Source of the DNA: an uncultured Bacteroidales bacterium
GTDB lineage: Bacteria > Bacteroidota > Bacteroidia > Bacteroidales > UBA932
Assembly: GCA_900541925.1 (NCBI GenBank)
Contig: UQMB01000002.1
Coordinates: 49,429-113,428, forward strand
Length of the DNA: 64,000 nucleotides
Direction of reading: 5' to 3'
Position numbers and translations under genes: made by a program. The notes beneath the pieces are model-generated. The model was not told where the DNA came from. It saw only the letters and a program-made list of their open reading frames with translations, and did not search any database. How positions within the stretch are numbered: the first letter of the stretch is position 1; each line of letters begins with the position of its first letter. Of this stretch, positions 14,448-57,323 are shown one piece after another.

Positions 14448-14611
14448 GAAGTTGTTTTGGATTTATTTGTCATAAATTTTATGAAGATTTTTCTGTCAGA
14501 GTTTTTTCTGGATTTTGAGAAAGATAGTAGAACTATCTGACCGAAAAAGCCAGGAAAAAATATGGCGGAAAAGCAAGTAAAAGAATTTTCAACATAAATC
14601 AAAACAACTTC
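14448..14611 (+). mobile_element. MITE copy 1 (164 bp, TIR-bounded, 3-bp TTA target-site duplication)
   Basis: Near-identical to 27653..27816 and to the reverse complement of 57068..57231. The ends are GAAGTTGTTTTGGATTTAT...ATAAATCAAAACAACTTC (about 20/22-bp inverted repeats), flanked by TTA/TTA. Confidence 0.85.
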
Positions 14612-15420
14612 TTAATCAGTTCTTTGTTCTTGTGCACGGCATTGAAAAGCGCCTCGATATTGACCTTGCTGTCCGCCCCGGACAGGTTGCGGCACACCTG
14701 GATGAAGCCGCCCGGCAGCTGCTCAGAATAGAGGCTGTCCGGATGGAGCACGGTGCCGTAGTCGAAGAACAGCTTCTCAGAGATCCTATCAAGCGAGGCG
14801 TTGAGAAGCACGTCCTGACGGTCAAGGATGATGATAGGGTCGATGACATTCTCCAGATCACGCACCTGATGAGTGGAGATCACGATGGTGGAGTCCTCAG
14901 GCGTGTACTTGAGAATCGCGGAGCGGAACTGGGCCTTGGACGGGATGTCCAGGCCGTTGGTCGGCTCATCCATCAGAAGATACTTCACCGAGCAGGCGAG
15001 GGCAAAGGAGATGTGGGTCTTCTTGAGCTGCCCGGCGGACATCGTGCTCATCTTCTGGTTCTTGTCCGCCTCGAATACTTCCATTATCTCGTTGAAGCGG
15101 TCAAGGCTGAAACGCGGCCAGAACCCGCCGCGCGACTTGGCCCAGTCCACAGCTTTCTCCGTGGAGGCGGCCACCTCGTCAGGCAGGAAATACTGGTCCG
15201 CGAGCATAGAAGGCTCGCGCCTGTAAGGGTCGCGGCCATCGGCCTCTATGGTGCCGGCCGCCGGCTTCTTCAAGCCGCATAGCAGTGTAAGTAGAGTGGT
15301 CTTGCCCACCCCGTTCTCACCGAGAAGTCCGTAAATCTTGCCTGGCTCAAGACTCAGGCTGATATTCCTGAGGACTTCCTTCTTTCCGTAACTGAATGCC
15401 AGATTCTGTGTTTTTATCAT
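14599..15420 (-). CDS. ABC transporter ATP-binding protein
   Basis: 273 aa with Walker A (GENGVGKTT), an ABC signature (MSAGQ) and Walker B (LLMDEP). The last four codons (KKLF) and the stop lie inside MITE copy 1. Confidence 0.9.
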   Translation of the reverse strand: MIKTQNLAFSYGKKEVLRNISLSLEPGKIYGLLGENGVGKTTLLTLLCGLKKPAAGTIEADGRDPYRREPSMLADQYFLPDEVAASTEKAVDWAKSRGGFWPRFSLDRFNEIMEVFEADKNQKMSTMSAGQLKKTHISFALACSVKYLLMDEPTNGLDIPSKAQFRSAILKYTPEDSTIVISTHQVRDLENVIDPIIILDRQDVLLNASLDRISEKLFFDYGTVLHPDSLYSEQLPGGFIQVCRNLSGADSKVNIEALFNAVHKNKELIKKLF

Positions 15421-15551
15421 TTTTGTGTATTACCTTAATAGTACACTGCAAATATAGTACAAAAATATGAACTACCAAAAAAACACAAAAAAAATTTCGC
15501 CGCGCCGGCATAAATAGCGGCAACTTGTTTTTTAACGGTCACTAACTAACA

Positions 15552-15585
15552 GAGGGCGACCGATAAATGATTATCAGTCGCCCTC
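15552..15585. terminator. Stem-loop downstream of yebC (9-bp GC-rich stem GAGGGCGAC/GTCGCCCTC)
   Basis: A perfect 9-bp inverted repeat with a 16-nt loop lies 20 nt past the yebC stop; no strong U tract follows. Confidence 0.45.
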
Positions 15586-15604
15586 CGGCAATTCGCTGAA
15601 TCGG

Positions 15605-16360
15605 CTATTCTTCCTCTTCCGGCTTCAATGTCGTGTAGACATTGGTGACGTCCTCGTCATCCTCAAGAAGTCCGGTAAGCTTGTCGAGGGTCACGCGCTG
15701 CTCCGGGGTCACTTCCTTGAGCTCGACATTAGGAATCTGCTCAAACCCTCCGGAAATCAGCTCATAGCCGTTCTCCTCTATATACTTCTGGATCTGTCCG
15801 TAAGCGGAGTAGTCGCCATAGATGACAATCACCTTGGTGACATTGCCGTCCTTGTCTTCTTCCTCCTGCTCGAAGAGCTCGTCCACGCCGTAGTCGATCA
15901 TCTCAAGCTCAAGTTCCTCAAGGTCCACTCCCTCCTTCTCCTTGATACGGAAAGTGCACTTGTGGTCGAACATGAAGCTCACGGAACCTGATGTGCCGAG
16001 GGAACCGCCGCACTTGGTGAAATAGCTGCGGACATTGGCGACCGTACGGGTGTTGTTGTCCGTGGCGGCCTCCACGAGATAGGCGATACCGTAAGGGCCA
16101 TAGCCTTCGTAGACTATCTCCTTGAAGTCTCCCTGCTTGCTCTCGGTGGCCTTCTTGATGGCACGCTCGATATTCTCCTTAGGCATCTGCTCGCTGCGGG
16201 CCTCCGCCATGAGCGCGCGGAGACGAGGGTTGCCGGTCACGTCCGGACCGCCCTGCTTGACGGCGATGGTGATTTCCTTCCCCAACTTAGTGAAGGTGCG
16301 GGCCATGTGACCCCACCTCTTCATCTTTCTCTCCTTTCGGAATTCAAACGCTCTTCCCAT
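15605..16360 (-). CDS. yebC: YebC/PmpR-family DNA-binding regulatory protein
   Basis: 251 aa starting MGRAFEFRKERKMKRWGHMARTF...GGPD, the canonical YebC N-terminus. Confidence 0.9.
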   Translation of the reverse strand: MGRAFEFRKERKMKRWGHMARTFTKLGKEITIAVKQGGPDVTGNPRLRALMAEARSEQMPKENIERAIKKATESKQGDFKEIVYEGYGPYGIAYLVEAATDNNTRTVANVRSYFTKCGGSLGTSGSVSFMFDHKCTFRIKEKEGVDLEELELEMIDYGVDELFEQEEEDKDGNVTKVIVIYGDYSAYGQIQKYIEENGYELISGGFEQIPNVELKEVTPEQRVTLDKLTGLLEDDEDVTNVYTTLKPEEEE

Positions 16361-16362
16361 TG

Positions 16363-17040
16363 CTACTCAGATACTCTTGCGATATACTTGTTGATCTCAT
16401 AAGCCTCAGGAGACTGAGGATAGCTGTCACGGACGGTATTGTAGCAGGCGAGAGCACCGGCCTTGTCGCCGAGAGCCTCGAGAGCGAGACCTTCCTTGAC
16501 AAGATATGAAGCGGCGAAGAGATTGTCGGCCTCGGCGACGGCTGCCTTGTAGGCGGAAACCGCCTCGCTGTACTTGCCGAGCCCTACATAGGCGTCACCC
16601 ATGCAGGCCTTGGCGCGGGCCGCGAGGATAGGCTCCTTGCCCTTGTATTTCTTGAGATAAGACAGGGCTGAGTCGTAGTTGCCGAGCTGGAGTTCACACA
16701 CGCCTGCATAGAAAGGCATGGACTTGCCGGCCTTGGAGCCGTAGTTCTTGATGATGTCGGCGAATCCGAGGTTGTTGCCGTCCCCGTTGAGGGCGACCTC
16801 ATACTCCCCGTTGCGGAAGCTGGTCTCGGCCGGGAAAGCCTGCTCCATCGCCTCGGCGCACTGGCGCTGATAGACGAACTTGTTCCAGGCTATGGAGCCG
16901 AGGAAGATCACGGCAAGCGCGATCAGCACTCCCCAGATCACCTTCTTGTGTTCATTATAAAACTGCTCTGTAGAAGAAACGGTCTTCTCAAGGTTCTCCC
17001 CAAGCACCGCGTCCTTGTCCTTAACGTTTTTGTTGGCCAT
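16363..17040 (-). CDS. Membrane-anchored TPR protein (YfgM-like)
   Basis: 225 aa with one N-terminal TM helix (VIWGVLIALAVIFLGSIAW) followed by TPR-like repeats. Confidence 0.6.
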   Translation of the reverse strand: MANKNVKDKDAVLGENLEKTVSSTEQFYNEHKKVIWGVLIALAVIFLGSIAWNKFVYQRQCAEAMEQAFPAETSFRNGEYEVALNGDGNNLGFADIIKNYGSKAGKSMPFYAGVCELQLGNYDSALSYLKKYKGKEPILAARAKACMGDAYVGLGKYSEAVSAYKAAVAEADNLFAASYLVKEGLALEALGDKAGALACYNTVRDSYPQSPEAYEINKYIARVSE

Positions 17041-17137
17041 ATCTAAATTAGTTCAATTATCGTGTATTGACTTTTCAGCCCGCGAAGTTATGAAAAATCC
17101 GGAACGGAAACAAATAAATCATTAACTTTGCAGATAT

Positions 17138-18241
17138 ATGCCAACCCTCGACAAGACAGTCATACAGGATTTCCGCAACATCGCGCTACAGGAAATCGAG
17201 TTCTCCCCCAACGTCAACTGCATCAGCGGCGGCAACGGGGAGGGCAAGACCAACCTGCTCGACGCGATATGGTACCTCTCCATGACGAAGAGCGCCTTCG
17301 CCGCATCGGACAGATTCAACTTCCGCCACGGCTGCACCGCCTTCGCCCTCTCCGGCACATACACCATGCCCGAGGGGCAGAAATCCCGCTTCAGCATCAA
17401 GGTGGGCGAAGGCGGCGAGAAGAAGATGCGCAGGGACGACAAGCCATACTCCCGCATCTCGGAGCACATCGGAGTGCTGCCTATAGTTATGGTCTCCCCT
17501 GCCGACATCGCCATGGTAAGCGAATCCGGGGACGAGAGGCGCCGTTTCATCAACTCCGTCCTCTCCCAGATGGACAGGGAGTACCTCTTCTCGCTGCAGC
17601 AGTACAACCGCCTGCTTCTCCAGCGCAACCGCCTGCTCAAGGACGGCATGGCCGACGGGGACCTGCTGGACACCTTCGACGAGAGGCTGTCCGTGCTCGC
17701 CTCCCCTATCTCCGCACGCAGGGAAGAGTTCTGCCGGGCCCTGGAGCCTGTGGTCCGCAAGTACTACGAAGAGATATCCGGCGGGAAGGAGGACGTGTCC
17801 ATAGAATACCGTTCCGACCTCCAGGGCGGGCCTCTGAAGGACATTCTCAAAGCGCGCCGCGACCGCGACAGCCTGCTGCGTTTCACCTCGGCCGGCATAC
17901 AGAGGGACGACTTCGTCTTCACGATGGACTCGCATCCCATCCGCCGCTGCGGCTCGCAGGGACAGCAGAAATCCTTCATCGTGGCGCTGAAGTTCGCCCA
18001 GTACGAACTGATGAGGCAGTCCTGCCGCACCGAGCCGATGATGCTGCTCGACGACCTCTTCGACAAGCTTGACCCGGGCCGCATCGGCAACCTGCTCGGA
18101 ATGGTGGCGGACAAGGGCTTCGGCCAGATTTTCATCACCGACTCCGACAAGGTCAGGACACGCGGCATAGTCGACGCCGTCACCTCGGACAGGGCATACA
18201 TCAAGGCGGAAGGAGGCGTCTTCACAAGGACAGATGAATAG
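17138..18241 (+). CDS. recF: DNA replication and repair protein RecF
   Basis: 367 aa with Walker A (GGNGEGKTNLLDA) and an SMC-like signature with a C-terminal Walker B (LLLDD). Confidence 0.92.
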   Translation: MPTLDKTVIQDFRNIALQEIEFSPNVNCISGGNGEGKTNLLDAIWYLSMTKSAFAASDRFNFRHGCTAFALSGTYTMPEGQKSRFSIKVGEGGEKKMRRDDKPYSRISEHIGVLPIVMVSPADIAMVSESGDERRRFINSVLSQMDREYLFSLQQYNRLLLQRNRLLKDGMADGDLLDTFDERLSVLASPISARREEFCRALEPVVRKYYEEISGGKEDVSIEYRSDLQGGPLKDILKARRDRDSLLRFTSAGIQRDDFVFTMDSHPIRRCGSQGQQKSFIVALKFAQYELMRQSCRTEPMMLLDDLFDKLDPGRIGNLLGMVADKGFGQIFITDSDKVRTRGIVDAVTSDRAYIKAEGGVFTRTDE

Positions 18242-18569
18242 ACCGGACTACCGTCTCCGCCGGCAGAAGCCGACGGCCCTCGCGGAACTGATAAAGCAGT
18301 ACCTGCAGGGCAACTCCCTCAACAGGGCGTTCAACACGCACCTCGTCTTCTCGGCCTGGGACGATGCCTCCGGCGCGGGCCGATATACCATAAAAAAGTT
18401 CTTCCGCGACGGCCGGCTGTATGTCACGGTCAGCTCGTCCGTAGTCCGCAGCCAGTTGCTCTTCCAGAAGTCCGCTCTCATCGACAAGATGAACGCCCTC
18501 ATCACGGGCAACGAGCTCTTCTGCGGCACCGCAGGCGAGAAATATGTCAAAGATTTGATAATCAAGTGA
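18234..18569 (+). CDS. DUF721-domain protein (RecF-associated)
   Basis: 111 aa, 8-bp overlap with recF; matches the conserved recF-DUF721 pairing. Confidence 0.7.
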   Translation: MNRPDYRLRRQKPTALAELIKQYLQGNSLNRAFNTHLVFSAWDDASGAGRYTIKKFFRDGRLYVTVSSSVVRSQLLFQKSALIDKMNALITGNELFCGTAGEKYVKDLIIK

Positions 18570-19600
18570 TGAAAATCGTCATAGACAACAAGATACCGTT
18601 CACGGAGGGCGTTTTCGAGCCCTACGCCGACGTCCGCTACATGGACGGGCCGCTCATCAGCCACGCCGATGTCAAGGACGCCGACGCCCTGATCATCCGC
18701 ACCAGGACAAGATGCGACGAGACCCTCCTCAAGGACAGCGCAGTCAAGATCATAGCCACGACCACCGTGGGCACGGACAACATCGACATCGACTACTGCC
18801 GCCGCCACGGGATATTCTTCAAGAACGCCAGCGGATGCAACGCAGGGGCCGTCGCCGACTATGTCTTCTCGGCCCTGTATGGTTCGGCCGCCCGCAAGAG
18901 CATCAGTCTGGAGGGCGCCACGATAGGCATCATCGGGCTCGGGAGCATAGGACAGAGGGTCGAGTCCATGGGCAGGGCCCTCGGCTTCAAGATCCTCAGA
19001 CACGACCCGCAGAAGGCGGAAGTCGAATGGTACACCCAGTTCTGCCCGCTTGACACCCTCCTGGAGAACTCCGACATAGTCACCATGCATGTCCCGCTCA
19101 ACGAGCGCACCAAGGGCATGGCAAATGCCGACTTCTTCGCCAAGATGAAGCCGGGCGCATTCTTCATCAACACCTCCCAGGGCGACATCGTGGACGAGGA
19201 GGCCCTCCTGGCGGCCATCCCGCGCCTCGGCCCGGTAGCCATCGACGCCTGGAGCCACGAGCCGTGGATCAACACCCACCTCATGGGCAGCGTGGACATC
19301 GCCACCCCGCACATAGCAGGCTACTCCCTGCAGGGCAAACAGATAGGCACCTCCATGGCCGTCCGCTCCACCGCCCGCTTCCTCGGCATCAGCGACCTCT
19401 ACGAGTTCTTCCCGCAGACCGACATCATGGAATACCAGGCCGTCAAACTCAACGTGCTGGACAAGTCACAGGGCCAGATCGCGGCGATGATCCAGTACAA
19501 CTACCCCATCTTCACCGACGACTTCATGTTCCGGATGAACCCGACCAAGTTCGTGGAGCTCCGGGCGGAATACAGCTACAGACGCGAGTTTTACCTCTAA
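18566..19600 (+). CDS. pdxB: 4-phosphoerythronate dehydrogenase-like D-2-hydroxyacid dehydrogenase
   Basis: 344 aa with a Rossmann NAD-binding motif (GIIGLGSIGQRV) and a catalytic His (DAWSHEP). PdxB-like length and architecture. Confidence 0.75.
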   Translation: MMKIVIDNKIPFTEGVFEPYADVRYMDGPLISHADVKDADALIIRTRTRCDETLLKDSAVKIIATTTVGTDNIDIDYCRRHGIFFKNASGCNAGAVADYVFSALYGSAARKSISLEGATIGIIGLGSIGQRVESMGRALGFKILRHDPQKAEVEWYTQFCPLDTLLENSDIVTMHVPLNERTKGMANADFFAKMKPGAFFINTSQGDIVDEEALLAAIPRLGPVAIDAWSHEPWINTHLMGSVDIATPHIAGYSLQGKQIGTSMAVRSTARFLGISDLYEFFPQTDIMEYQAVKLNVLDKSQGQIAAMIQYNYPIFTDDFMFRMNPTKFVELRAEYSYRREFYL

Positions 19601-19611
19601 TCGATAACATT

Positions 19612-21108
19612 ATGGACAAGACCAGAATCGACGCTCAGATAGAGCGCTTCCGCAAGGGTTTCCCTTGGCTCGACATCATCTCGCCGGCCACCCCTTCAAG
19701 GGGCATCGAGGTGCTGGGAGAGAAGGCCGCGGAAGAAGCGGCAGCCTATGCAGACACGGCACAGACGGACGGCAGGTGCAAGTTCGTGCCGGCATCCGGC
19801 GCGGCGTCCCGGATGTTCAAGGACATATTCGCCGGGATGGACGAGCCCAACGACGCCGTACGCCGCCTGTGCGACAACCTCGAGAAATTCGCGTTCTACA
19901 GCCCTGAAGTCTTCGGGACGGCCCCTTACGACCCGGCCACGACGGCCCGCAGGCTGCTCACCGACGAAGGCCTCGACTACGGCAGCAAGCCCAAGGGAGT
20001 GCTGAGCTTCCACCGCTACCCGAACGAAGTACGCACCGCTCTCGCAGAGCATCTCGTTGAAGGTCAGGCATACATGCGCAATGCTGACGGCAGCGTCAAC
20101 CTCACGGTGACCATCACTCCGGAGCACGAGCCCCTCTTCCGCGAGCTGCTGGAGCAGATCCGGCCGGAATACGAGAAGCGTTACGGGGTCAAGTACGACA
20201 TATCTTTCACATTCCAGGACAAGGCCACGGACACCATGGCGGTGGACATGGAGAACCACCCGTTCCTGAAGGAAGACGGTACCGTGCTCACCCGCCCGGC
20301 AGGACACGGGGCCCTCATCCACAACCTCAACAGCCTCAAGGCCGAGCTCGTGTCCATCAAGAACATAGACAACGTGTGCGTGGAGAGGATGCAGCCTGTC
20401 ACGGCCCACTGGAAGAAAGTGCTGATGGGCAGGGCCCTGCAGCTGCGCGACACCATCCGCGGCTACATCTTCGCCCTGGACCAGATGACCCGGATGCGCC
20501 GGGAGATGAGCGACTTCGCATACATTCCGGTCTACAACGTCAATCTCGACGACCCATACGCCACCCCTGAGTGCCAGGACCTGTGCAACGAGATAGAAGC
20601 CTTCCTCCGCGACACCCTCTGCATAGAGATGCCGGAGGCCAAAGACTGCCGCGACAGGGCGCAGGCCCTGCGCGACAAGCTCAACCGCCCGATAAGGTTG
20701 TGCGGGATGGTGCGCAACCAGGGCGAACCGGGCGGAGGCCCGTTCATCATCCGCGACAGCGACGGGGCCACCTCGCTCCAGATACTCGAAGCGGCCCAGA
20801 TCAACCCCGACGACCCGCGCTCGGCCCAGCTCCTGAAAGGCTCGACCCACTTCAACCCTGTGGACATCGTCTGCTGCCTGGAAGACCACGAAGGCGCTCA
20901 TTTCGACCTCACCAGACATGTGGACGAGGAGACCGGGCTCATCAGTCGCAAGAGCTGGCACGGACGCGAGCTCAAGGCGCTTGAACTCCCCGGACTCTGG
21001 AACGGCTCGATGTCAGACTGGAACACCCTCTTCGTGGAAGTGCCGCTCGAGACCTTCAATCCGGTGAAGACCGTGCTCGACCTGCTGCGGCCCGCACATC
21101 AGCAATAA
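19612..21108 (+). CDS. DUF4301-family protein
   Basis: 498 aa from ATG 19612. The listed 614-aa ORF begins inside pdxB in another frame. Conserved hypothetical in Bacteroidales. Confidence 0.6.
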
Positions 21109-26441: not shown

Positions 26442-27632
26442 ATGAAAAAAGTTTTGACAGCCGCAATATTGGCGGTAACAACCTGCGCTTTTGTCGGCTG
26501 CACGAAGAACGAGGTGAGATCCATCAGCGACAACCCTCAGGCAGTCCGTTTCCTCCCGCTTAACGGCAAACACTCCACCAAGGACATGGTCGACGGCAAT
26601 ACCTATCCTAAAGATCTCCCGTTCGGCACGCTCGCATACTACCTTCCAAGCGGAAACTGGAACGCCAACATGGCGGATGCCACTCTCTACATCCCTATAA
26701 GCAAGGTGGTGAACAAATCCGGCGCGGCCAGCGGCAACGCATGGGAAGTTGAAGGGAAGGAATACTATTGGCCGAAGAGCGGCACACTCACCTTCTTCGC
26801 CTATAGCCCGTTCTCCTATCAAGAGGCTGGCGGAGGCGATCTCAATATTGAGAGCCTCTCAGGCAATGACGGTATACAGATAGTGGACTATGATGTGGAT
26901 GCGCATCAGGACACCGACTTCATGGTGGCTGACATTGCCAAGGACAAGACAGCGAACGAGTCGAACGGCGGATACACCGGTGTCCCTATTGTATTCCGTC
27001 ACAAGCTTTCGCAGATAGTCGGCATCAACTTCCAGACCGTCATCACCAACACCGAAGGCAATCTCGTGGAGCATGATTACTCGTACGGACGCAGCACCAA
27101 CGGACCCCTGCAAGCAGGCGACATAGTGTTCAAACTCAAGAAAGTGGAGGTCAGAAACCTCTATACAAAGGGCACTTACGGATACACAACCACAGATGCA
27201 GATCCTGTAGCAGAGCATTGGAGTCCTCTGTCCAACAAAAATCCCTACACCTGGTTCAATAAAGCCCCTGAGGCATTTGTCGACAACACCAAGTTCAACC
27301 TGACATACAAGACCCAAGATGACACCCGCAACAAGTATCTCCTCGTCCTGCCTCAGCCTCTTATCACCCCCGGCACCACAACTCCTAAAACAACGGATCC
27401 GCTCATCCACATCGAATACCAGGTGCTGACCTACAGCGACGCTACCCACCACTCCACCGAGAATGTATCTGAGGATGTTTATCTGTATAACATCCATGGC
27501 AGCGCCAACGCAATCGATATGAACAAGAAGATAACCTACAACTTCAAGATCAATCTCGAGAACCGCAAGATCTACTGGGCTCCGTCCGTTGTGGACTGGG
27601 GAAGCGTAACTTACGACAACATCATCAAATAG
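26442..27632 (+). CDS. Fimbrillin-family (type V pilin, FimA/Mfa-like) lipoprotein
   Basis: Start reassigned to ATG 26442 (MKKVLTAAILAVTTCAFVGC, a lipobox); a TAaaTTTG -7 box sits at 26413..26420. Conserved fimbrillin motifs (FFAYSPF, DFMVADIAKD, VPIVFRHKLSQI, C-terminal DWGSV). Confidence 0.8.
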   Translation: MKKVLTAAILAVTTCAFVGCTKNEVRSISDNPQAVRFLPLNGKHSTKDMVDGNTYPKDLPFGTLAYYLPSGNWNANMADATLYIPISKVVNKSGAASGNAWEVEGKEYYWPKSGTLTFFAYSPFSYQEAGGGDLNIESLSGNDGIQIVDYDVDAHQDTDFMVADIAKDKTANESNGGYTGVPIVFRHKLSQIVGINFQTVITNTEGNLVEHDYSYGRSTNGPLQAGDIVFKLKKVEVRNLYTKGTYGYTTTDADPVAEHWSPLSNKNPYTWFNKAPEAFVDNTKFNLTYKTQDDTRNKYLLVLPQPLITPGTTTPKTTDPLIHIEYQVLTYSDATHHSTENVSEDVYLYNIHGSANAIDMNKKITYNFKINLENRKIYWAPSVVDWGSVTYDNIIK

Positions 27633-27652
27633 GCAGCCACAGACAGCGCTTG

Positions 27653-27816
27653 GAAGTTGTTTTGAATTTATTTGTCATAAATTTTATGAAGATTTTTCTG
27701 TCAGAGTTTTTTCTGGATTTTGAGAAAGATAGTAGAACTATCTGACCGAAAAAGCCAGGAAAAAATATGGCGAAAAAGCAAGTAAAAGAATTTTCAACAT
27801 AAATCAAAACAACTTC
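27653..27816 (+). mobile_element. MITE copy 2
   Basis: 164 bp, about 98% identical to copy 1, same orientation. Flanks are TTG/TTA. Lies between the first fimbrillin gene and the DUF3575-like gene. Confidence 0.85.
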
Positions 27817-27855
27817 TTAGTATCAGGGCGGGTGAAACTGCCCTGATGCACCAAG

Positions 27856-30137: not shown

Positions 30138-31169
30138 ATGAAAAGAATTATTTTACTCGCAGCATCGGCCATGGCAATACTTGCCGGCTGCACCAGGACG
30201 GAGATCCGCTCCATAGCGGACGAGCCGCAGCAGATCACTTTCAGGACCATTGAGACGAAAGCTGCTGATGACTTCCTGAACACCAAGAAGTTCTACTCTT
30301 ATGCCTACTTCCTTCCGTCAGGCCAGGATTGGGCGACAAAATTCGCAGATGCCCAGGCCTACATCCCGGGTGCACTTATCGCCTTCAACACAACTGACAA
30401 CGCCTGGAAAGCGTCCGGAGCGACATACTACTGGCCGAAACAAGGCTCTCTCACCTTCTTCGCCTGGACTGACTACACCGATGCTCCTGCGCCAACACTG
30501 GCAGGATGCGCGAAAGACAAGGGGATCACATTTACCGCCTACTCCGCTTTTGACCATAAGAATAAGGACCTGCTTGTGGCAGACATAGCAAAAGACATGA
30601 ACGGCAAGAACCTGACAACACATCAGGGATGGAAGCCAGGCGTGCCTACCGTATTCCACCATGTCCTCTCCAATCTCGCATTCACAATCAAGACCAACGA
30701 AAACTATGCCGGAGCCACATATAGTCTCAAATCCATCACATTGAAGAATATCAGCACCAAGGGTGATTATGCCCAGGGCAGCCCTACCGCCACCGTTGCA
30801 GAAAATGTATGGACAGGCCATGTCGATGTCAAGGACATGCCGGTATTCACGAGCGCTGCAGGACAGTCTGTCAGCAGCACAGCTGCACTGCTCTCACCGA
30901 GCGCGGATGACTTCAGCATTGTGCTCCCTCAGAAATTCGCTGACGCGACTCCAGAAATCGAGATAGTCTACACCATCACCACCAACTATACCGGGACTGC
31001 TGTTGTGGAGACCGTGACAGAGACCAAGCCTCTCAAGGACATCTACACCGAAGGCTGGGTGTCCGGCAAGAAATACACTCTCAACATCAAGCTCTCCCTC
31101 AACGAGATTCTCTGGGATCCTTCAGTTGAGGGCTGGGAAGATGGTGCCGTTACCGATATCCAGTTCTAA
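30138..31169 (+). CDS. Fimbrillin-family lipoprotein (paralogue 2)
   Basis: 343 aa, lipobox ILAGC; shares the YYWPKxGSLTFFA and VPxVFxHxLS motifs with the 26442 and 31268 genes. Confidence 0.8.
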   Translation: MKRIILLAASAMAILAGCTRTEIRSIADEPQQITFRTIETKAADDFLNTKKFYSYAYFLPSGQDWATKFADAQAYIPGALIAFNTTDNAWKASGATYYWPKQGSLTFFAWTDYTDAPAPTLAGCAKDKGITFTAYSAFDHKNKDLLVADIAKDMNGKNLTTHQGWKPGVPTVFHHVLSNLAFTIKTNENYAGATYSLKSITLKNISTKGDYAQGSPTATVAENVWTGHVDVKDMPVFTSAAGQSVSSTAALLSPSADDFSIVLPQKFADATPEIEIVYTITTNYTGTAVVETVTETKPLKDIYTEGWVSGKKYTLNIKLSLNEILWDPSVEGWEDGAVTDIQF

Positions 31170-31267: not shown

Positions 31268-32236
31268 ATGCTCAAGAGACTGATTATGGCCGTATTGGTC
31301 CTGACACTTGGCTGCTGCACGAAAATAGTGCAGCAGAGCGGTCCTACGGACAATACCGAAATCAGCTATCAGGTGATAAGCGACAGGACAAAGGCCCCCT
31401 TAGAAGCGTACCCGACAACGGTCCCGTTCGTCTCTTCCGCATGGTATCTGCCACAGGGGAAGAAGTGGGCCGCCAACAAGGCGGACGCCCAACTGTACAT
31501 CTCCTCCGCTGTCATAAGTTACGACCCCACCACAAAGGTCTTCAAGGCGGCGACGCCGTATTATTGGCCCAAGAAGGGGTCTCTCACATTTATGGCCTAT
31601 TCACCGGAATCCGACAAAATACAGATTACCAAAGAGGGCGTGGAGGTTACAGGCTGGGCCACAAACGGGAGCGACAAGAGAATCGATCTTATGGTGGCAG
31701 ACATCAAGTCCGCCAACGGTACTTCATACGGTATGGTCGGCGTACCTATCGTATTCAGGCATATTCTTTCCAAAGTAGCCGTGACGGCATTCATCGAAAA
31801 GGCAGAAACCGGGAAAACGATTTCCCTGAACAGAATAATTTTCCGTAATGTCTATGGCGAGGCGGATTTCAACGGCTCGGAATGGACCAACAGAGGTGAT
31901 GTCCACGATGTTGACAACACGCTGACAAATCCCATAACGCTCAATGTCAACAAGCAAAACATCATCGAGACAATGCTTCTGATACCTCAGAGCCTTTCGG
32001 CTGTCGGCACGAGGGAGAATGTCAAGATGGAGATCTACTACACCATCAATAACAACGGAGCCATCCAAAACGAGAATGTGTCCATATCTCTCAACCAGCA
32101 CGGCGCTGCCTGGGAAAGAGGGAAATACACTGAATATCAGATTATATTCGGAACTTCTGACCATCCTATCGATTTCGGAGGAAGCGTTTCCGACTGGACC
32201 GGCTATGGTAATACTGACATTGTAATCGGAGGATAG
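31268..32236 (+). CDS. Fimbrillin-family lipoprotein (paralogue 3)
   Basis: 322 aa, lipobox LTLGCC, motifs YYWPKKGSLTFMAYSPE and VPIVFRHILSKV. Confidence 0.8.
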   Translation: MLKRLIMAVLVLTLGCCTKIVQQSGPTDNTEISYQVISDRTKAPLEAYPTTVPFVSSAWYLPQGKKWAANKADAQLYISSAVISYDPTTKVFKAATPYYWPKKGSLTFMAYSPESDKIQITKEGVEVTGWATNGSDKRIDLMVADIKSANGTSYGMVGVPIVFRHILSKVAVTAFIEKAETGKTISLNRIIFRNVYGEADFNGSEWTNRGDVHDVDNTLTNPITLNVNKQNIIETMLLIPQSLSAVGTRENVKMEIYYTINNNGAIQNENVSISLNQHGAAWERGKYTEYQIIFGTSDHPIDFGGSVSDWTGYGNTDIVIGG

Positions 32237-38489: not shown

Positions 38490-38713
38490 CCAGTCCCGGC
38501 AGTGACCTGTGCTTTCCGCCGCACCTGCTCTTGCTGCCACCGTCGCGCGCAGCCCCCGATGCTAAGACGAGCCTCGCGTACACCACAGGGCCATTTTCTG
38601 CACCGCACTGTCCGGCGAGGCCGTCCCGTACAACAGAAGGCCTGATTCTGTACGGCGCGGTGGGGCCTGCCGTCACAGGACCGCCTCTTGCCCATTGCTG
38701 AAGCCCGTTGCTG

Positions 38714-38836
38714 CCAGGTGTGAGCCTATTCCGGCATTTCCGCTGCTACCTGGACCTTCCAGCTGCTCTGCATGGCTCTCTCAGGCATCCGCCTACGCCA
38801 GGTGTGAGCCTATTCCGCCGAATCGGCTCACACCTG
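38714..38836. repeat. GC-rich REP-like palindromic units (40-mer CCAGGTGTGAGCCTATTCCGGCATTTCCGCTGCTACCTGG and a hairpin variant)
   Basis: A 40-mer at 38714..38753; a 10-bp-stem hairpin GGTGTGAGCC-N14-GGCTCACACC at 38801..38834. The same 40-mer recurs in opposite orientation at 59344, 60230 and 60314. Confidence 0.8.
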
Positions 38837-38952
38837 CATCGCGTGACTCAGGCTCCTGGCCCGGCACTATGGCAGCGGGCGCCCTGGACAGGCGGCCTCC
38901 TGCGATGCTTTTGTGTTGAGCAGGAGGCTGCCCGCTCCCGAGGCGCCCATCT

Positions 38953-42081: not shown

Positions 42082-42082
42082 C

Positions 42083-50666: not shown

Positions 50667-50702
50667 CGTCAGCAGGGGTCAGGTACGAACATCCGATAAC
50701 CC

Positions 50703-52001
50703 TCAACGCACCCTGACGATGGCGGCGTCGAAGGCGCCGACCTCATCCAGGCTCCAGGAAGAGCAGCCGCAGACAGGTTCGAGCTCCGGAGGCACAGCTA
50801 CGCGCAGCCCGCGCACGGCGGCATCGGAGAAATTGCAGAACACGAGCCACGCCCCGGCGTCATCGTAGCGCAGGAAGGCGAAGTGCCGGTCCGCATCGAA
50901 GCCCAGAGAATCAAGGTTGCAGTAACACAGGTCCCAGGACTTGCCGCTCCTGAACACCGGCATCGCAGCGTAGCCCAGCATCTGCCTGTACCGTGAGAGC
51001 ACAGCGGACTCCTCCGGAAGCAGCCCCCCGGTGCCGTGGACGGCTTGATATAGCCGGCCTATGGAAGCGGGATGCGTGATGTCGAAGATGGAAGTGCGCC
51101 CGTTGCCGCTCTCGGCGGCATTCTCCCCCACCTCCTGGCCGAAATAGAGCATGAACGACGCGTCGTTGAAGAGCATCGACACGGCCAGCGCGGCCCAGGC
51201 GCTGGACGGGGATCCGAGGAAAAAGCCGGACGCGACCCTCTGCTCATCGTGGTTCTCAAGGAAATTGAGCATCCGCGGCTGGAGATCCCCGAGGAACTGC
51301 CAGTTCCAGGTGATTGCCCGGGCAGTCAAACTCCCGGTGCAGATTCCGCGCAGGCTGTCATACAGGCCGGACTTGTCGTAGAGCAGGTCGAAGCCGACCT
51401 CTTCTATGTATTTACGGTAGTTGTCCTTCCCGTAGACCTCCGCCACGAAGAGGGTCTGCGGGGCATCCCGCCTGACAGCGGCAAGCAGTTCCCCGAGGGC
51501 CTCAGGCGGCACGAGCTCCACCATGTCGCAGCGGAAGCCGTCGACCCCGCGCGCAATCCAGAAGCGCAATATGTCCAGCATCGCTGCGCGGGTGGCAGGA
51601 GAGCTCCAGTCGTTCTTGAGGGTGTCTGTCCAGTCAGCGTCGCAATAATCAAAATGCACTATCGGACCCTGATAATCACGGGCTACATGATTGGGAATAT
51701 AATCTATAAGCAGCTTGAGGCCGGCCGCGTGCACCCTCCCGACCAGCGAGTCGAACTCTTCCATCCGGCGCGACGGACAATCGGCAAGATATGGATTGAC
51801 ATCCTTCCAGTCGCTGACCGAGTACGGGCAGCCCGGGTCCCCCTTGACGAAATCCCGGCCGCTGGCGTGACGCGGAATCCCCGTAAGCCAGAGGCAGTCA
51901 ACCCCGAGAGACTTGATGTACTTGAGAGTAGACTCATCCCAGGAAGAGAATCCCGGCTTGCCCCACAGACGGGCCAGAGCCTGATAGATAATGAGTTTCA
52001 T
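50703..52001 (-). CDS. Alpha-amylase family (GH13) glycosidase
   Basis: 432 aa with GH13 conserved regions (DYIPNHVA, GFRCDMV, FLENHD). Confidence 0.8.
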   Translation of the reverse strand: MKLIIYQALARLWGKPGFSSWDESTLKYIKSLGVDCLWLTGIPRHASGRDFVKGDPGCPYSVSDWKDVNPYLADCPSRRMEEFDSLVGRVHAAGLKLLIDYIPNHVARDYQGPIVHFDYCDADWTDTLKNDWSSPATRAAMLDILRFWIARGVDGFRCDMVELVPPEALGELLAAVRRDAPQTLFVAEVYGKDNYRKYIEEVGFDLLYDKSGLYDSLRGICTGSLTARAITWNWQFLGDLQPRMLNFLENHDEQRVASGFFLGSPSSAWAALAVSMLFNDASFMLYFGQEVGENAAESGNGRTSIFDITHPASIGRLYQAVHGTGGLLPEESAVLSRYRQMLGYAAMPVFRSGKSWDLCYCNLDSLGFDADRHFAFLRYDDAGAWLVFCNFSDAAVRGLRVAVPPELEPVCGCSSWSLDEVGAFDAAIVRVR

Positions 52002-52007
52002 TGTATG

Positions 52008-54149
52008 TCAGAAAGGATAACCCACGCCGAAATGGACGGCGAAACCGTCCCGGCGCAGCCATTTTGAAGGTCCGAGCCATCGGCTCCCCGCATCGCGGGA
52101 CGGGTCATGGAGCTTGAAGCCCATGTCGAAGCGCAGGAGAATGAAGTCCATGTTGAGCCTCAGGCCAAGTCCCCAGTCGGCAGCGAGGCTCTCAAGCCGC
52201 AACTCGTCGATGTCCTCGTGCTGCCAGACATTTCCGGCCTCGGCGAAAAGCGCGCCCTCAAGTTTCCACAGCATCTTGAAGCGGTACTCCATGTCGGCTT
52301 CTATCTTGATGTCTCCCGTCTGGTTGGGGATGATGAAGAACGTGTCCATCTTGCTGAACCCCGGCCCGAGCGTCCTGACCTGCCAGCCGCGCATGCTGCT
52401 CGCGCCGCCGCAGTAGAACTGCTTCTCGAACGGAAGCGCCACCGAGTTGCCGTAAGCCCGCCCGACGCCTCCGTCAAGCCTGAACGCCAGCGCCTGGCTG
52501 TCGTTGCCCCCGAAACGGAAAGTCTTGCCCAGAGAGAGAGCCAGCTTCACATACTGATTGTACGGCAGGCCATATAAAGTCCGCTGTCCCAAGGAGTTGA
52601 GCGGTAACTGGCCATTGAACAGGGAGATGAGGTTGCCCGCCACATCCACCGACACCCGGGCGTAATGATAAGGGGTCTTGGGCACGATGTCGGAGTTGGT
52701 CGTATAGTAGAATGTCCCGCCTACCCCCGCGTCTATCTGGTCTTCGAACGAATCCCAGAGGTAAGGGTTGCCCTTGAGGGTCTCCAGGAAATCCTCGCCT
52801 ATGGCATAGAGTTTCACGAGGTTGAGCTGGAGCGGGTAGAACTGGTAGAAAACCTTCCTCCCCGACTGGCCCGTGTATCCGTATGATAATCCGGCTATGC
52901 TCCGGCGGTACTCCGGACGGTTCTGGTAGTTGAAACTGGCCTTGATCTCGGTACGCGGGATGTTGTCCCGTCCATTTATCCACCTGTTGCTGTATCCAAG
53001 CGCCTTCGGGAAGCTGACGGAGGCGGACATCCCATACTCGGCGGAACGCACGTCCGTGCCTGGCTTGAACTGCCAGTTCCCGGTGAAACCGAGGTTCAAC
53101 AGTTCCCCGCCCCGGAAGAGGTTCTTGTGGAAGAATGTCAGCTGCGGCGATGTCCCGAGCAGGCCGGAGGAGTTGGACGAGGCTTCAAGGTTGACCTTGA
53201 ACCCGAACACATTGGAGCCGCTCAGACGGATGTCACAGTCCACCACGGCGCTGTCCGCCGGCGTCATCTCGATGTTGACATTGTTGAACACGTTGAATCC
53301 CGAGAAACGGTAATAGGTGGAATTCACCAGTTTCTCGCTGTACAGCTCGCCCGGCCGGATGTTGTTGAAACTCGCCAGGACCGGTTCACGGAAACGTATC
53401 GTCGAAGGGTAGTGGATCCTCACGTCCCCGATTCTGTACTTGACCGGAGGCACTGCGCTCAAAGGGCTCTCGTTGCGCGTGTAATTCTTTATCCTGTAAT
53501 AGAGCACCGTCCTGTCTCCCAGCGTGTCGGCCTCGAAGAAGTAGTGATTCTTGTTGAAGTTGTAGTAGCCCAGGTTCCTGAAATACGCGGCTCCCCTCTC
53601 CGTCTCGGCAGATAGGGCCTTCTCTGACAGGGGGCTGCCGACACGGATGCTGACGGCGGCGCTGTCCCTGCGGAAGTCCTCCGCGAACTCCCCTTCCGGA
53701 ACTTCAAAGACCAGGCTGTCTATACGGTGTCGCCGCCCGGGCTCCACGACATATCGCACGGCCGCCTTCTTCCCCTTGAATTCAACTTCAGGGGTGACCT
53801 TGGCATCATAATAGCCAAGGTAAACGAGCCTTGTGCGCATAGCCGAGGCCGAGGACTGCATCTGGACAGGGTCGAACACCACTGGCGCCGTGCCTATCTT
53901 CTCCCAGAATGAATTGATCCCCCGTCCGCTGCCATTCGACCAGTTGTAGACCCCCACGAAAGGATTCCACCCAAAGATGGAGGAATTGGGCTGCTGGCGC
54001 ACATACGATGAGACCTCCGAGGCACGCGGCCCGTCATCGCCGCGCACGCTCACCTTGCTGGAGGAGAGCAGGTAACGCCCCTCCGGCAAGCGGCTGGTGG
54101 TGCTGCAGGAGACGAGCAGGAGAAGCAACAGGAGCGGGGATTTCCTCAT
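52008..54149 (-). CDS. BamA/TamA-family (Omp85) outer-membrane protein
   Basis: 713 aa with a signal peptide, POTRA-like N-terminal region, a C-terminal 16-strand barrel and a terminal aromatic residue. Confidence 0.75.
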   Translation of the reverse strand: MRKSPLLLLLLLVSCSTTSRLPEGRYLLSSSKVSVRGDDGPRASEVSSYVRQQPNSSIFGWNPFVGVYNWSNGSGRGINSFWEKIGTAPVVFDPVQMQSSASAMRTRLVYLGYYDAKVTPEVEFKGKKAAVRYVVEPGRRHRIDSLVFEVPEGEFAEDFRRDSAAVSIRVGSPLSEKALSAETERGAAYFRNLGYYNFNKNHYFFEADTLGDRTVLYYRIKNYTRNESPLSAVPPVKYRIGDVRIHYPSTIRFREPVLASFNNIRPGELYSEKLVNSTYYRFSGFNVFNNVNIEMTPADSAVVDCDIRLSGSNVFGFKVNLEASSNSSGLLGTSPQLTFFHKNLFRGGELLNLGFTGNWQFKPGTDVRSAEYGMSASVSFPKALGYSNRWINGRDNIPRTEIKASFNYQNRPEYRRSIAGLSYGYTGQSGRKVFYQFYPLQLNLVKLYAIGEDFLETLKGNPYLWDSFEDQIDAGVGGTFYYTTNSDIVPKTPYHYARVSVDVAGNLISLFNGQLPLNSLGQRTLYGLPYNQYVKLALSLGKTFRFGGNDSQALAFRLDGGVGRAYGNSVALPFEKQFYCGGASSMRGWQVRTLGPGFSKMDTFFIIPNQTGDIKIEADMEYRFKMLWKLEGALFAEAGNVWQHEDIDELRLESLAADWGLGLRLNMDFILLRFDMGFKLHDPSRDAGSRWLGPSKWLRRDGFAVHFGVGYPF

Positions 54150-54856
54150 AACTGCCTCCGTCTGAATTCAGAGAGCGTGACGGCGGTGGCGATGGCCACA
54201 TTGAGTGACTCGGCGCCGCTCCCCCCGAACGACGGGATGAGGAGCCTGCCGGTAAGCAGTTCCCGCACCTGCGGGCTGATGCCAACGGACTCATTCCCCA
54301 TCACCACAAGTCCCTCAGGGACAATGCTCTCCTTATATATGTCCACTCCGTCCAGCACGGTTCCGTAGACCTCCATGCCGGCGTCCCGGAAGCGTCTGCA
54401 TACATCTGTCAACCCGGCAGAGAGGACTTTCACGCGGAACACGGATCCCATCGAAGCCTGCACCACCTTGGGGTTGTACAGGTCCACGCAGTCTTCTGAC
54501 GCGAAAACGGTCCGCACCCCGAACCAATCCGCGATGCGGATGATGGTGCCGAGATTGCCCGGGTCACGCACGGAGTCAAGCGCGAGATAAAGTTCCTTCC
54601 GGAGGGTCTGCGGGAGGGCCGTCCTGTCCGGAATCCTCAGCACGGCGAGCACAGGGGACGGACTTGAGAGCTGGCTGATGCGCGACATGGCATTCTCGCC
54701 TATGTCCGCTGTCCGCCATATCCCGGCAAGTTCCAGCCCCGAACGGATGGCTTCGTCCACCATCTTCTCCCCTTCCACGACAAACTCTCCGCTCGCTTCG
54801 CGGTATTTCTTCTCACGGAGCGAGCGGATATGCTTTATCTCGGCGTTTGTGATCAT
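54146..54856 (-). CDS. TrmH/SpoU-family RNA 2'-O-methyltransferase
   Basis: 236 aa with SPOUT motifs (LDSVRDPGNLGTIIRIADWFG, MGNESVG, GAESLNVAIATAV). Confidence 0.85.
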   Translation of the reverse strand: MITNAEIKHIRSLREKKYREASGEFVVEGEKMVDEAIRSGLELAGIWRTADIGENAMSRISQLSSPSPVLAVLRIPDRTALPQTLRKELYLALDSVRDPGNLGTIIRIADWFGVRTVFASEDCVDLYNPKVVQASMGSVFRVKVLSAGLTDVCRRFRDAGMEVYGTVLDGVDIYKESIVPEGLVVMGNESVGISPQVRELLTGRLLIPSFGGSGAESLNVAIATAVTLSEFRRRQL

Positions 54857-55489
54857 CTAGTCCACGAATCTGATCTTGCTGAGGTCTCTCGGCTTCGCGT
54901 CCGGGGCCTCGTCAGGATAGCCCACACCTATCATATATAGGAGCGAGTAATCTTCACTGAAGCCGAGCCTGGCGATAAACGCCCTTCCGGCCTCGCTGTC
55001 TTTGAGGAAACGTACCGGCCCTCCGAGGCACACGGTGCCGAGCCCGATGGAGTGCGCGGCCAGCATGATGTTCTCGCCCAGGAGACCGGCGTTGACTCCG
55101 TCATCCCCCGCAGGGACGGCGACGCAGATTACGGCCGGGGCGTTACGGAACATGTTCTTGAAACCCGGATCACGCTCAAGCAACTGCGGATTGGCCTTCT
55201 TGTACTCTTCGGAGATGGCCGCGATGCTCTCGGCGTTGTCCACGATGCGCACCTCCCACCTCTGGGCGTTCATCCCGTTCGGGGCGTTGACACCGCACTC
55301 GGCGATGAGCTGGAGTTTCTCCCTCTCGACCGGGGTGTCCTTGTATTTCCTGATGGAACGACGGCTCATTATGGCTTCTATCACGGGGTTCTGCCCGTCG
55401 TCCTGCTTGACAGCCTCACCGCCCTGTCCACAGGAGGCGAGGCAAAGGGCGGCAATGGCCGCCGCTGTGATTGAAAGATACTTTGTCAT
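54857..55489 (-). CDS. Nitroreductase-family protein with lipoprotein-type signal
   Basis: 210 aa with an FMN-binding nitroreductase fold (RRSIRKY, NAQRWEV); the N-terminal signal has LASCG. Confidence 0.8.
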
Positions 55490-55492
55490 AAC

Positions 55493-55525
55493 TTTGCTAA
55501 GTTAGCAAAAATTTTCATATATTTG
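55493..55525 (+). promoter_or_regulatory. Bacteroidetes sigma-AB-type promoter of pfkA (-33 TTTG, 21-bp spacer, -7 TATATTTG) with overlapping palindrome TTGCTAAgTTAGCAA
   Basis: TTTG at 55493..55496 and TATATTTG at 55518..55525, 22 bp upstream of the pfkA ATG. The 15-bp perfect palindrome at 55494..55508 lies between the boxes. Confidence 0.6.
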
Positions 55526-55546
55526 CGCCGGAAATTTGAGTTTGAC

Positions 55547-56518
55547 ATGAACATCGGATCCATAGGAGTTCTCACATCCGGAGGCGACGCCCCCGGGATG
55601 AACGCCTGCGTCAGGGCGGTCACAAGAGCGGCGATTTTCGAAGGCTGGAAAGTCTACGGCATATACCGCGGCTATGAGGGCCTCATAATGGGCAACATAA
55701 AGGAACTCTCCACCGAGAGCGTGAGCAACACCATCCAGCGCGGCGGCACCATCCTCAAGACAGCGCGCAGCACTGAATTCCGCACCCCTGAAGGGAGGAA
55801 GAAGGCCCACGACAATGTGGAGAAGTTCGGCATCGACGCCCTCGTCGTCGTAGGCGGCAACGGTTCACTGGCCGGCGCGCAGATTTTCGCCAGCGAGTAT
55901 GACATTCCCGTGATCGGGCTTCCGGGGACGATTGACAACGACCTCTACGGCACGGATTCGACCATAGGCTACGACACGGCGCTCAACACCATCATGCAGT
56001 GCGTGGACAAGATACGCGACACGGCGACCAGCCACGACCGCATCTTCTTCGTCGAGGTGATGGGCAGGGACGCAGGTTTCCTCACGCAGAACAGCGCCAT
56101 CGCTTCCGGAGCGGAGGCCGCCATCATCCCTGAGGACAACACGGACATCGACCAGCTCGCGACCTTCATCGGACGCGGCATCCGCAAGAGCAAGAACAGC
56201 AGCATCGTCCTCGTCTCCGAGAAGGACGGCGGCGCGATGCACTACGCGGAGCGTGTACGCAAGGAGTATCCGGAGTACGACGTGAGGGTTTCCATACTCG
56301 GACACCTTCAGCGCGGAGGCACTCCGACAGCCTACGACAGGATTCTCGCAAGCCGTCTCGGCATAGCCTCCATCGAGGCTCTCAAGGAAGGCCAGAGGAA
56401 TGTGATGGTGGGCATCAAGAACGACCAGATCGTCTATGTCCCTATCTCCAGGGCCATCAAGATGGACAAACCTATTGACAAAGAGCTCATCAATGTGCTG
56501 AGCATACTGTCAATATAG
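55547..56518 (+). CDS. pfkA: ATP-dependent 6-phosphofructokinase
   Basis: 323 aa from ATG 55547 with motifs [14 protein letters not shown] and PGTIDND. Confidence 0.93.
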
Positions 56519-56572
56519 ATTCATACGCGGCTCCGCGCGAGCCGTTTCAGCCGGGTCTCGGGCCCGGGACAT

Positions 56573-56645
56573 GGGGTATTAGCTCAGTTGGTAGAGCGTC
56601 AGGTTCGCAATCTGAAGGTCAGGGGTTCGACCCCCCTATGCTCCA
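56573..56645 (+). tRNA. tRNA-Ala (anticodon CGC)
   Basis: 73-nt cloverleaf folded by hand: a 7-bp acceptor stem with the G3:U70 Ala identity pair, D arm GCTC/GAGC, anticodon loop TTCGCAA and T-arm AGGGG-TTCGACC-CCCCT. CCA is not encoded. Confidence 0.9.
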
Positions 56646-56961
56646 CAAACTACGCTGTAAATCAGCATGTCACAGTGGCCATACACAATTCCGTACACAG
56701 AAATATGGAATTGTGTATAATTTCTTTTATTAGTCCCTAACTTGCGACGCTGGGGAAGGAACACCAGCCTTCGCCGCTGCCGGCATCTGGGGCTCCTCAG
56801 GAACTACCTTGCAGAAGGAGACTGCGCTGCAGGCGTAGTCTCCGTAGTGATTCCCGGTTATGCGGGGGTATGGGGATTTGATTTGGACCAGTTCCAGGTC
56901 TATGCCCGGTTCATCCTGCTGGACAGCATTACCGGCTACCGGAGCCAGTATCAGGGTTATG

Positions 56962-57323
56962 CTACCATCGTAAAAGCCACTTGAGTTCCGTCCAGAACTT
57001 ATAGGTACCCTTCATGTCAATCCTTGTGCCCTGGAATATGATGAATCCGTTCTGTTTCCAGTTATAAGAAGTTGTTTTGATTTATGTTGAAAATTCTTTT
57101 ACTTGCTTTTTCGCCATATTTTTTCCTGGCTTTTTCGGTCAGATAGTTCTACTATCTTTCTCAAAATCCAGAAAAAACTCTGACAGAAAAAATCTTCATA
57201 AAATTATGACAAATAAATCCAAAACAACTTCTAAAAGGCCTGGCGGCTGATGCCAATCCATTTGGAGAACTCCGTAACGTTACAGGCATCGTGATTCTGG
57301 GGACAGTTTCTCCAACTTCTCAT
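56962..57323 (-). pseudogene. Excisionase/AlpA-like HTH (HTH_17-type) gene disrupted by MITE copy 3
   Basis: In-silico removal of 57068..57234 (MITE plus one TAA) joins 57235.. to ..57067 in frame, giving ...EFSKWIGISRQAFYNWKQNGFIIFQGTRIDMKGTYKFWTELKWLLRW*, which matches Xis/AlpA-type HTH proteins. The N-terminal boundary (ATG 57323) is uncertain. Confidence 0.6.
57068..57231 (-). mobile_element. MITE copy 3 (inverted orientation, TAA/TAA target duplication)
   Basis: Its reverse complement is about 98% identical to copies 1 and 2; flanked by TAA on both sides; inserted within the xis-like coding frame. Confidence 0.88.

Follow-up and report, generated by a model that had tools for sequence, protein, structure and literature searches.

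A 164-nt repeat family of uncultured Bacteroidales, very probably miniature inverted-repeat transposable elements, with natural empty sites

Three nearly identical 164-nt repeats lie scattered over a 64,000-nt stretch of an uncultured Bacteroidales chromosome (contig UQMB01000002.1, positions 49,429 to 113,428; this whole stretch is referred to as the window). Did these repeats reach their positions by transposition and, if so, what kind of element are they and which enzyme moved them? Comparison with other strains and species demonstrated that the family has transposed, inserting with a 3-bp duplication of TWA targets, i.e. T(T/A)A, and giving rise to presence/absence polymorphism between strains, and that it has spread to several Bacteroidales species and decayed into shorter derivatives and solo ends. 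The repeats very probably form a family of MITEs (miniature inverted-repeat transposable elements), meaning non-coding, non-autonomous DNA transposons that are moved in trans by a transposase encoded elsewhere.

The three copies are located at positions 14448..14611 (copy 1, plus strand), 27653..27816 (copy 2, plus strand) and 57068..57231 (copy 3, minus strand). Each comprises exactly 164 nt, and with a pairwise identity of 98.2-98.8% they agree in position, strand and similarity (about 98%) with the initial annotation of this sequence. The G+C content of the copies is 28-29% compared to 57% for the window, and the window contains the 19-nt left end three times, against an expectation of 0.00 (100 shuffles). 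Read in the orientation of the element, copy 1 is flanked by TTA on both sides (14445..14447 and 14612..14614, plus strand), copy 2 by TTG/TTA and copy 3 again by TTA/TTA (57065-57067 and 57232-57234, appearing as TAA/TAA on the plus strand), exactly as the 3-bp flanking duplications had been described earlier. The imperfect terminal inverted repeats (TIRs), previously estimated at about 22 bp, extend over ~19-22 nt. Their left end reads GAAGTTGTTTTG(G)ATTTAT and their right end ATAAATCAAAACAACTTC, complementary over ~19 nt with one 1-nt indel; in copy 1 the left TIR (GAAGTTGTTTTGGATTTATTTG) covers 14448..14469 on the plus strand and the right TIR ~14591-14611. The element contains no open reading frame (ORF) of substance, as had also been noted, since the sole ORF of at least 60 aa that reaches any copy (27625-27807, minus strand) is a mechanical frame beginning in the flank and entering copy 2.

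Copy 1 does not lie between genes; it is positioned within the coding sequence of an ABC-transporter ATPase gene (14599..15420, minus strand), 18 nt upstream of its stop codon. The last six codons of this gene (SLFENE) are replaced by KLF and a stop codon from the end of the MITE, which rewrites the C-terminus from ...KSLFENE to ...KKLF and shortens the protein from 276 to 273 aa. The insertion also separates the ATPase gene from the downstream permease-like gene (13627..14418, minus strand), the ATG of which overlapped the ATPase stop codon prior to insertion; no record matched the exact sequence of the permease when read from its ATG. Excision of copy 1 in silico restored a 276-aa ATPase ending in KELIKSLFENE as well as the overlap of its stop codon with the ATG of the next gene. 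Of the 120 best ATPase homologues listed, nearly all have a length of 276 aa (a few have 280-281 aa), and the sister-species proteins P0003 and P0005, which end in KELVKSLFDNE and KELVKSLFENE, respectively, match the excised window, while the 273-aa protein P0002 represents the same MITE allele in another strain. The corresponding sister-species DNA (L065-L067) reads GAACTGGTAAAATCG without interruption and is collinear and equal in length with the excised window (GAACTGATTAAATCG). A third allele (P0001/L046) was present in another strain of the window's own species, 96.5-97.9% identical to the window, in the form AACAAA-ACAACTTC-TAAATCG. Here the last 8 nt of the element (ACAACTTC) remain and 11 nt of the flank are gone, amounting to a 167-nt in-frame deletion that is bounded by CAAA microhomology and converts ELI to TTS in the ATPase. 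The ATPase/permease overlap ATGAATGA is intact in the sister-species loci and in L046, where the deletion restored it. The sister-species, window and L046 alleles thus show this locus in its ancestral, occupied and imprecisely cleaned states.

Copy 3 is located within a small orphan ORF with resemblance to helix-turn-helix (HTH) proteins (56962..57411, minus strand), which runs from MFADAGK to LLRW and is split by the element between ISRQAF and YNWKQNGF. According to the initial annotation this insertion was reversible in silico, and removal of copy 3 together with one TTA yields ...NVTEFSKWIGISRQAFYNWKQNGFIIFQG... at the junction. Only four relatives of the ORF were found in 5.8 billion protein clusters (P0121, P0122, P0123 and P0124). 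Among these, P0121 and P0122 are continuous across the junction (ISRQAFYNWKQNGFIIFQG), while P0124 is the MITE allele and ends with ...ISRQAF. The DNA encoding P0122 (L041-L045) came from several samples, Hadza gut metagenomes among them. It shares 97.8-98.3% identity with the window and reads GGCCTTTTATAACTGG at the site of copy 3, the predicted empty site with a single TTA. Because this natural empty site contains a single TTA, one TTA belongs to the target and was duplicated. The match between the natural empty site and the in-silico excision bears out both the reversibility of the insertion and the claim that the element had transposed. Compared between strains, the three loci gave empty or derived alleles for copies 1 and 3, with copy 2 occupied in every strain sampled.

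The interrupted ORF had also been regarded as excisionase-like, with an HTH_17 motif, and this part of the initial annotation was not borne out. The restored ORF, examined with three start choices, gave nothing significant in Pfam, NCBIfam or PHROG, and no integrase was present within 10 kb and the ORF lies in no recognisable integrative element. Sub-threshold matches comprised ANT/KilAC (E = 1e-3 to 4e-3; 19 bits vs a cut-off of 25), HTH_28 (E ~0.01 (0.009)) and the Cox-like excisionase PHROG phrog_575 (E = 0.018 over 28 residues). With no profile above its threshold, the ORF is no longer termed an excisionase. It is situated in ordinary chromosome, and its neighbours are a tRNA-Ala, phosphofructokinase and a regulator-like gene with AlbA_2 and HATPase_c_4 domains. 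The missing HTH_17 homology, to which the initial annotation had tied the mobile interpretation, leaves mobility intact because movement is proven independently in the DNA. In addition to being split, the ORF is frameshifted in the window relative to P0121 and P0124 and constitutes a pseudogene there.

Further observations concern the surroundings of copy 3. The AlbA_2/HATPase_c_4/HTH regulator-like gene (57522-58987, minus strand) is split by one indel, with residues 1-114 and 103-488 of the intact 488-aa L041 protein encoded in different frames in the window. The frameshifts in this gene and in the HTH-like ORF could represent real decay or consensus errors of the metagenome-assembled genome (MAG). 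The empty-site strains do not contain a segment of ~385 nt (window ~56649-57034 vs L041 3126-3215) and carry ~70 nt of other sequence instead. This gap spans the HTH-like ORF (after ...IIFQG) to the 3' end of the tRNA-Ala, and the absent part encodes the C-terminus ...KGTYKFWTELKWLLRW, which is retained in P0123, a more distant MAG protein. Because the ~385-nt segment differs between strains, the region beside the tRNA-Ala is variable. Another contig, from a metagenome (L002 3181-5508, ENA ERZ27234946 k119_81211), shares 2.3 kb with window positions 57063-59392 at 99.1% identity and has a different context on both sides. The shared segment holds the AlbA_2/HATPase_c_4 gene, the HTH-like ORF and copy 3, and its breakpoints lie at the MITE (right flank TAT, not TTA) and at a GC-rich repeat described below; it is either a chimeric assembly via repeats or a real repeat-mediated rearrangement.

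Copy 2 is intergenic within an Mfa-type fimbrial operon, with the stop codon of a 431-aa fimbrillin-like gene on one side and, on the other, a hairpin that lies upstream of a DUF3575 gene. In every strain sampled this copy was present or the contig was broken within it, and its TTG/TTA flanks fit an older, fixed insertion. The GC-rich hairpin directly after copy 2 (27820-27845; ATCAGGGC-gggtgaaact-GCCCTGAT) is likely to have served the fimbrillin-like gene upstream until the MITE parted it from the stop codon. The same operon contains 41-nt direct repeats at 26762-26802, 30425-30465 and 31558-31598 (71-83% identical), which are situated in paralogous Mfa-like fimbrillin genes and look like ordinary paralogy, not a mobile repeat.

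Beyond the window, the distribution of the family was followed in genome and metagenome collections. A scan with the 22-nt left end, covering one genome per species for 185,579 species, returned ten loci in four other uncultured Bacteroidales MAG species, all of them flanked by TWA. Nine of these are 163-164-nt copies with 94-97% identity to the window copies, while the tenth is a 42-nt TIR-to-TIR derivative. Two insertions are common to orthologous loci of different species, with flanks that are 97% and 93% identical, and are therefore older than the species splits; copies at orthologous loci and the flanks of these copies diverge at about equal rates. Copies with 94-99% identity occur in different species and in loci of differing G+C content. 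The metagenomes were scanned with a pattern that combined both end types with 'not A' at positions 155-156 to skip full-length MITEs, yielding a divergent subfamily of ~161 nt (L047, L059), derivatives, solo ends, a further full copy and four chance matches. Taking both scans together, the derivatives measure 42 nt (L036 ~1568-1608), 67 nt (L050 471-537) and ~120 nt (L057 ~3306-3426) and are flanked by TAA/TAA or TTA/TTA. Solo ends of 26-30 nt were seen directly upstream of genes encoding signal peptides (loci L049, L051/L055 and L053). Altogether 16 independent insertions could be read, and their 3-nt flanks are T(T/A)A in all cases, one TTG excepted; in 12 of the 16 the two flanks are identical, always TTA or TAA. 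Short-read contigs from many samples terminate within the element, as expected of a multi-copy repeat. A partial copy was also found in a phage-like contig (L028 19-93, IMGVR_UViG_3300029310_000182), which opens with a 98.7%-identical match to MITE nt 1-75, is flanked there by TGA and then diverges, with a dense tRNA array adjacent and no transposase beside it. The fragment may have arisen by truncation of an insertion in a phage infecting these hosts, or by a join made during assembly.

Closer examination of the element itself revealed that it forms an imperfect palindrome from end to end, of which the TIRs are merely the outer portion. The ends are almost invariant among 15 family members from at least six genomes. 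Folded as RNA, the window element has a minimum free energy of -54.3 kcal/mol (z = -8.0) and the divergent subfamily one of -71.5 kcal/mol (z = -10.8). The alignment of the 15 members, effectively a sample of two lineages, contains 57 predicted pairs with 96% of the cells paired, and compensatory changes on both sides were observed in 11 of the 57 pairs, a number reached by none of 500 shuffles and exceeding that of slid controls. The internal hairpin AGATAGT-aga-ACTATCT reported in the initial annotation is present (14522..14538, plus strand, in copy 1) and constitutes the apex of the whole-element palindrome. Its stem changes from GATAGT/ACTATC in the window copies to GATAGC/GCTATC in the divergent subfamily, a compensatory replacement of T-A by C-G, and the central block GATAGY-N3-RCTATCTGACYGAARAAGC is kept in both subfamilies while the remaining interior differs. 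An Rfam scan of the element gave no family, only sub-threshold miRNA-precursor hairpins, and no match to a sigma-70 promoter, a terminator or the Bacteroidetes TAnnTTTG motif was found in it. The conservation of the end-to-end hairpin suggests that it matters for transposition or for transcripts reading through the element.

The case for a MITE family combines the 164-nt length without a transposase ORF, the ~19-22-nt TIRs, the multiple polymorphic copies and the 3-bp duplication, for which a single trinucleotide remains at the empty sites. The TWA retained at two empty sites contradicts an assignment of both flanking trinucleotides to the element. In the proposed mechanism, a transposase would bind the ~20-nt TIRs (GAAGTTGTTTTG...) and cut a T(T/A)A target with a 3-nt stagger, and gap repair would then duplicate the target trinucleotide on both sides. 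The loss of copy 1 in L046 occurred by an in-frame deletion flanked by microhomology and not by precise excision. Several observations weigh against this account. The sole loss observed is this deletion with microhomology and not an excision of the transposase type; no empty site for copy 2 was detected among contigs carrying an exact or 97%-identical DUF3575 protein, beyond which the next DUF3575 homologues are only ~65% identical; the flanks are non-identical in 4 of the 16 insertions (TTG/TTA, TAA/TTA twice and TTA/TAA); the covariation draws on the two lineages mentioned above; and no autonomous insertion sequence (IS) with matching ends was found in genome, metagenome and viral scans, which needed exact 18-22-nt ends and were not exhaustive.

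The window is an ordinary piece of chromosome, essentially identical to contig DAWBDB010000001.1 of MAG GCA_052312775.1. It encodes arginine biosynthesis, carAB, SRP54, oxaloacetate decarboxylase, the Mfa-type fimbrial operon, a V-type ATPase, phosphofructokinase, tRNA-Ala and RNase P RNA. Neither a transposase nor an integrase was among the annotated genes of these 64 kb. Scanning the genome collection for the 22-nt left end brought up nothing but MITEs, without any IS, and no IS was recovered from the metagenomes with the pattern that skipped full-length copies. Among viral contigs, the 18-nt TIR core gave 22 loci, of which 21 were chance matches without a partner TIR and one was L028. Plasmid and phage sequences, searched by BLAST with the element and with its end, yielded A/T-rich noise only, relaxed TIR pairs 0.4-3.5 kb apart in 486 kb of related loci included nothing credible, and a literature search for the TIR string retrieved unrelated primers only.

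Which enzyme drives the family can be approached through the target duplication. The IS5 family (IS1031 and IS427 groups) and PIF/Harbinger-Tourist elements are marked by a strict T(T/A)A target, and the IS1031, IS427 and ISL2 groups are bacterial relatives of PIF/Harbinger. The flanks of the 164-nt element agree with the IS5-type pattern, a 2-4-bp duplication at TNA/TWA, and the 3-bp TWA duplication makes an IS5-family DDE transposase (IS1031, IS427 or ISL2 type) the favoured candidate, with a likelihood somewhat short of even. Duplication length alone identifies no transposase family, and no IS5-type partner with matching ends was found in these searches; a 3-bp-duplicating MITE could instead depend on another family with 2-3-bp duplications, such as IS30 (including Bacteroides IS4351), or on an undescribed or phage-borne transposase, for which the 75-nt left-end fragment opening the phage-like contig at 98.7% identity may be taken as a hint. 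We consider this unlikely though well worth keeping in view: the strict target points to the IS5 family and PIF/Harbinger-Tourist, we know of no description of such a target for IS30, the GAAG...CTTC ends do not match those of the IS3 family (TG...CA), and the phage contig has no transposase beside the fragment. A driver of the IS630/Tc1-mariner type, duplicating the dinucleotide TA with the third base (T or A) belonging to the end of the element, would account for the TA or AA that adjoins the element in each flank, and a 165-nt element that duplicates 2 bp (TA) suits the empty sites of copies 1 and 3 equally well. It would, however, place an extra base at the right end in the TTA cases and at the left end in the TAA cases, whereas all 16 insertions are more simply accounted for by a 3-bp TWA duplication and an element of constant 164-nt length whose GAAG...CTTC ends are symmetric, and an IS630-like partner was not found either. 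The 2-bp duplication was rejected, as it needs element ends that vary from copy to copy, and a driver of this type appears improbable.

The long hairpin with its conserved apex block invites two further explanations. A palindromic element could be moved as single-stranded DNA by a Y1 transposase (IS200/IS605 or RAYT type) and inserted 3' of TWA without any duplication, the right TWA being part of the element; the left flank, which is always TWA or TTG, would be consistent with this. The right trinucleotide nevertheless varies with the left (in 12 of the 16 pairs the two agree, as TTA or as TAA), as a duplication predicts, TIRs are present that are absent from IS200/IS605 derivatives, and composition and length are unlike those of G+C-rich REP sequences. 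An IS200/IS605 or REP-type element was rejected because of the TIRs and the co-varying flanks, and its likelihood is very slight. Still less probable is a functional host repeat, i.e. a regulatory or structural RNA or DNA module, that was spread by recombination and not by transposition. The compensatory hairpin changes, the central block conserved across subfamilies and the fixation of copy 2 in all sampled strains would suit such a repeat, and against it stand the unrelated contexts of the three copies, two of which disrupt coding sequence, the base-exact junctions with target duplications, the existence of empty sites, the missing Rfam family, promoter or terminator signal in the element, and the divergence of orthologous copies at about the rate of their flanks. 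As the origin of the element a host repeat is therefore disfavoured, while an acquired secondary function is possible. Because the hairpin and central block are kept (11 compensatory pairs) although the remaining interior has diverged, copies of 94-99% identity occur in different species and in loci of differing G+C content, and no partner was found among the 185,579 species genomes or in the metagenome scan, it is also conceivable, at rather long odds, that the element is more than a decaying parasite. The family might then persist because the hairpin serves as a structured RNA or DNA module, acting for instance on how transcripts of operons are processed or stabilised, or it might be mobilised by an unrelated or phage-borne enzyme that recognises the structure in place of a cognate IS end.

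Taken as a MITE family, the 164-nt elements can be compared with several known groups. With Tourist-like MITEs, PIF/Harbinger and the IS5 family (IS1031, IS427 and ISL2) they share a short, non-coding and AT-rich sequence, TIRs, a 3-bp T(T/A)A (TNA) duplication and a location in or next to genes. Summaries of the ISfinder type give a TNA target for the IS1031 and IS427 groups. A 3-bp duplication has been documented for PIF/Harbinger and its Tourist MITEs (PMC2213677, PMC2836001). It is the duplication alone that points to membership of the 164-nt family in this group, no cognate autonomous element having been found. Within the Bacteroidales, only the MITEs of Porphyromonas gingivalis have to our knowledge been characterised in detail. 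These elements (MITE239, MITE700 and MITEPgRS/BrickBuilt) are likewise non-autonomous, chromosomal, gene-disrupting and variable between strains. They disrupt genes (MITE239 in glk), vary by strain and accompany rearrangements (PMC2575886, PMC4596501). Their TIRs are shared with ISPg1 and ISPg3, they range from 239 to ~720 bp and one contains internal minisatellites, whereas the 164-nt element, judged by these descriptions, is a single end-to-end palindrome with a different TIR and no partner found. The ERIC/IRU, YPAL and Correia elements resemble it in having a long end-to-end imperfect hairpin, in lying in or between operon genes and in generating short A/T-rich duplications. They are 100-170 nt long, usually have no known active partner, and their transcripts can alter mRNA stability. 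The 164-nt element shows no sequence relationship to them, differs in its target (TA for Correia) and is known here from DNA alone. A census of prokaryotic MITEs (NAR 2024), which for Bacteroidota covered 46,051 genomes and listed 81,380 distinct MITEs, reported the sharing of MITEs between phages and hosts (PMC11602168). The 164-nt family likewise has a partial copy in a phage-like contig; the census contains no empty-site or mechanistic analysis of the 164-nt family.

A second repeat family that is G+C-rich and unrelated to the MITE occurs at 38699-38842, 59278-59414 and 60229-60384 of the window as well as at L002 5544-5653 and L041 1-124 and 946-1075. It consists of ~40-nt units CCAGGTGTGAGCCTATTCCGGCGTTTCCGCTGCTACCTGG with palindromic CCAGGT...ACCTGG ends and an 84-nt period, arranged as two or three tandem units at three intergenic places with 80-90% identity. 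The family may be REP/BIME-like or represent some other small mobile repeat.

The 164-nt family is an ordinary kind of element and leaves the understanding of MITEs unchanged. What it adds is a well-documented MITE family for uncultured gut and rumen-type Bacteroidales, the documentation consisting of base-exact empty sites, a footprint allele, derivatives and a distribution across species. The repeats break short-read assemblies, many public contigs ending within them, and can seed chimeric joins. They also alter genes, as seen for the C-terminus of the ABC ATPase and its lost overlap with the permease gene, the fimbrial operon and the HTH-like ORF, and they provide convenient strain markers.

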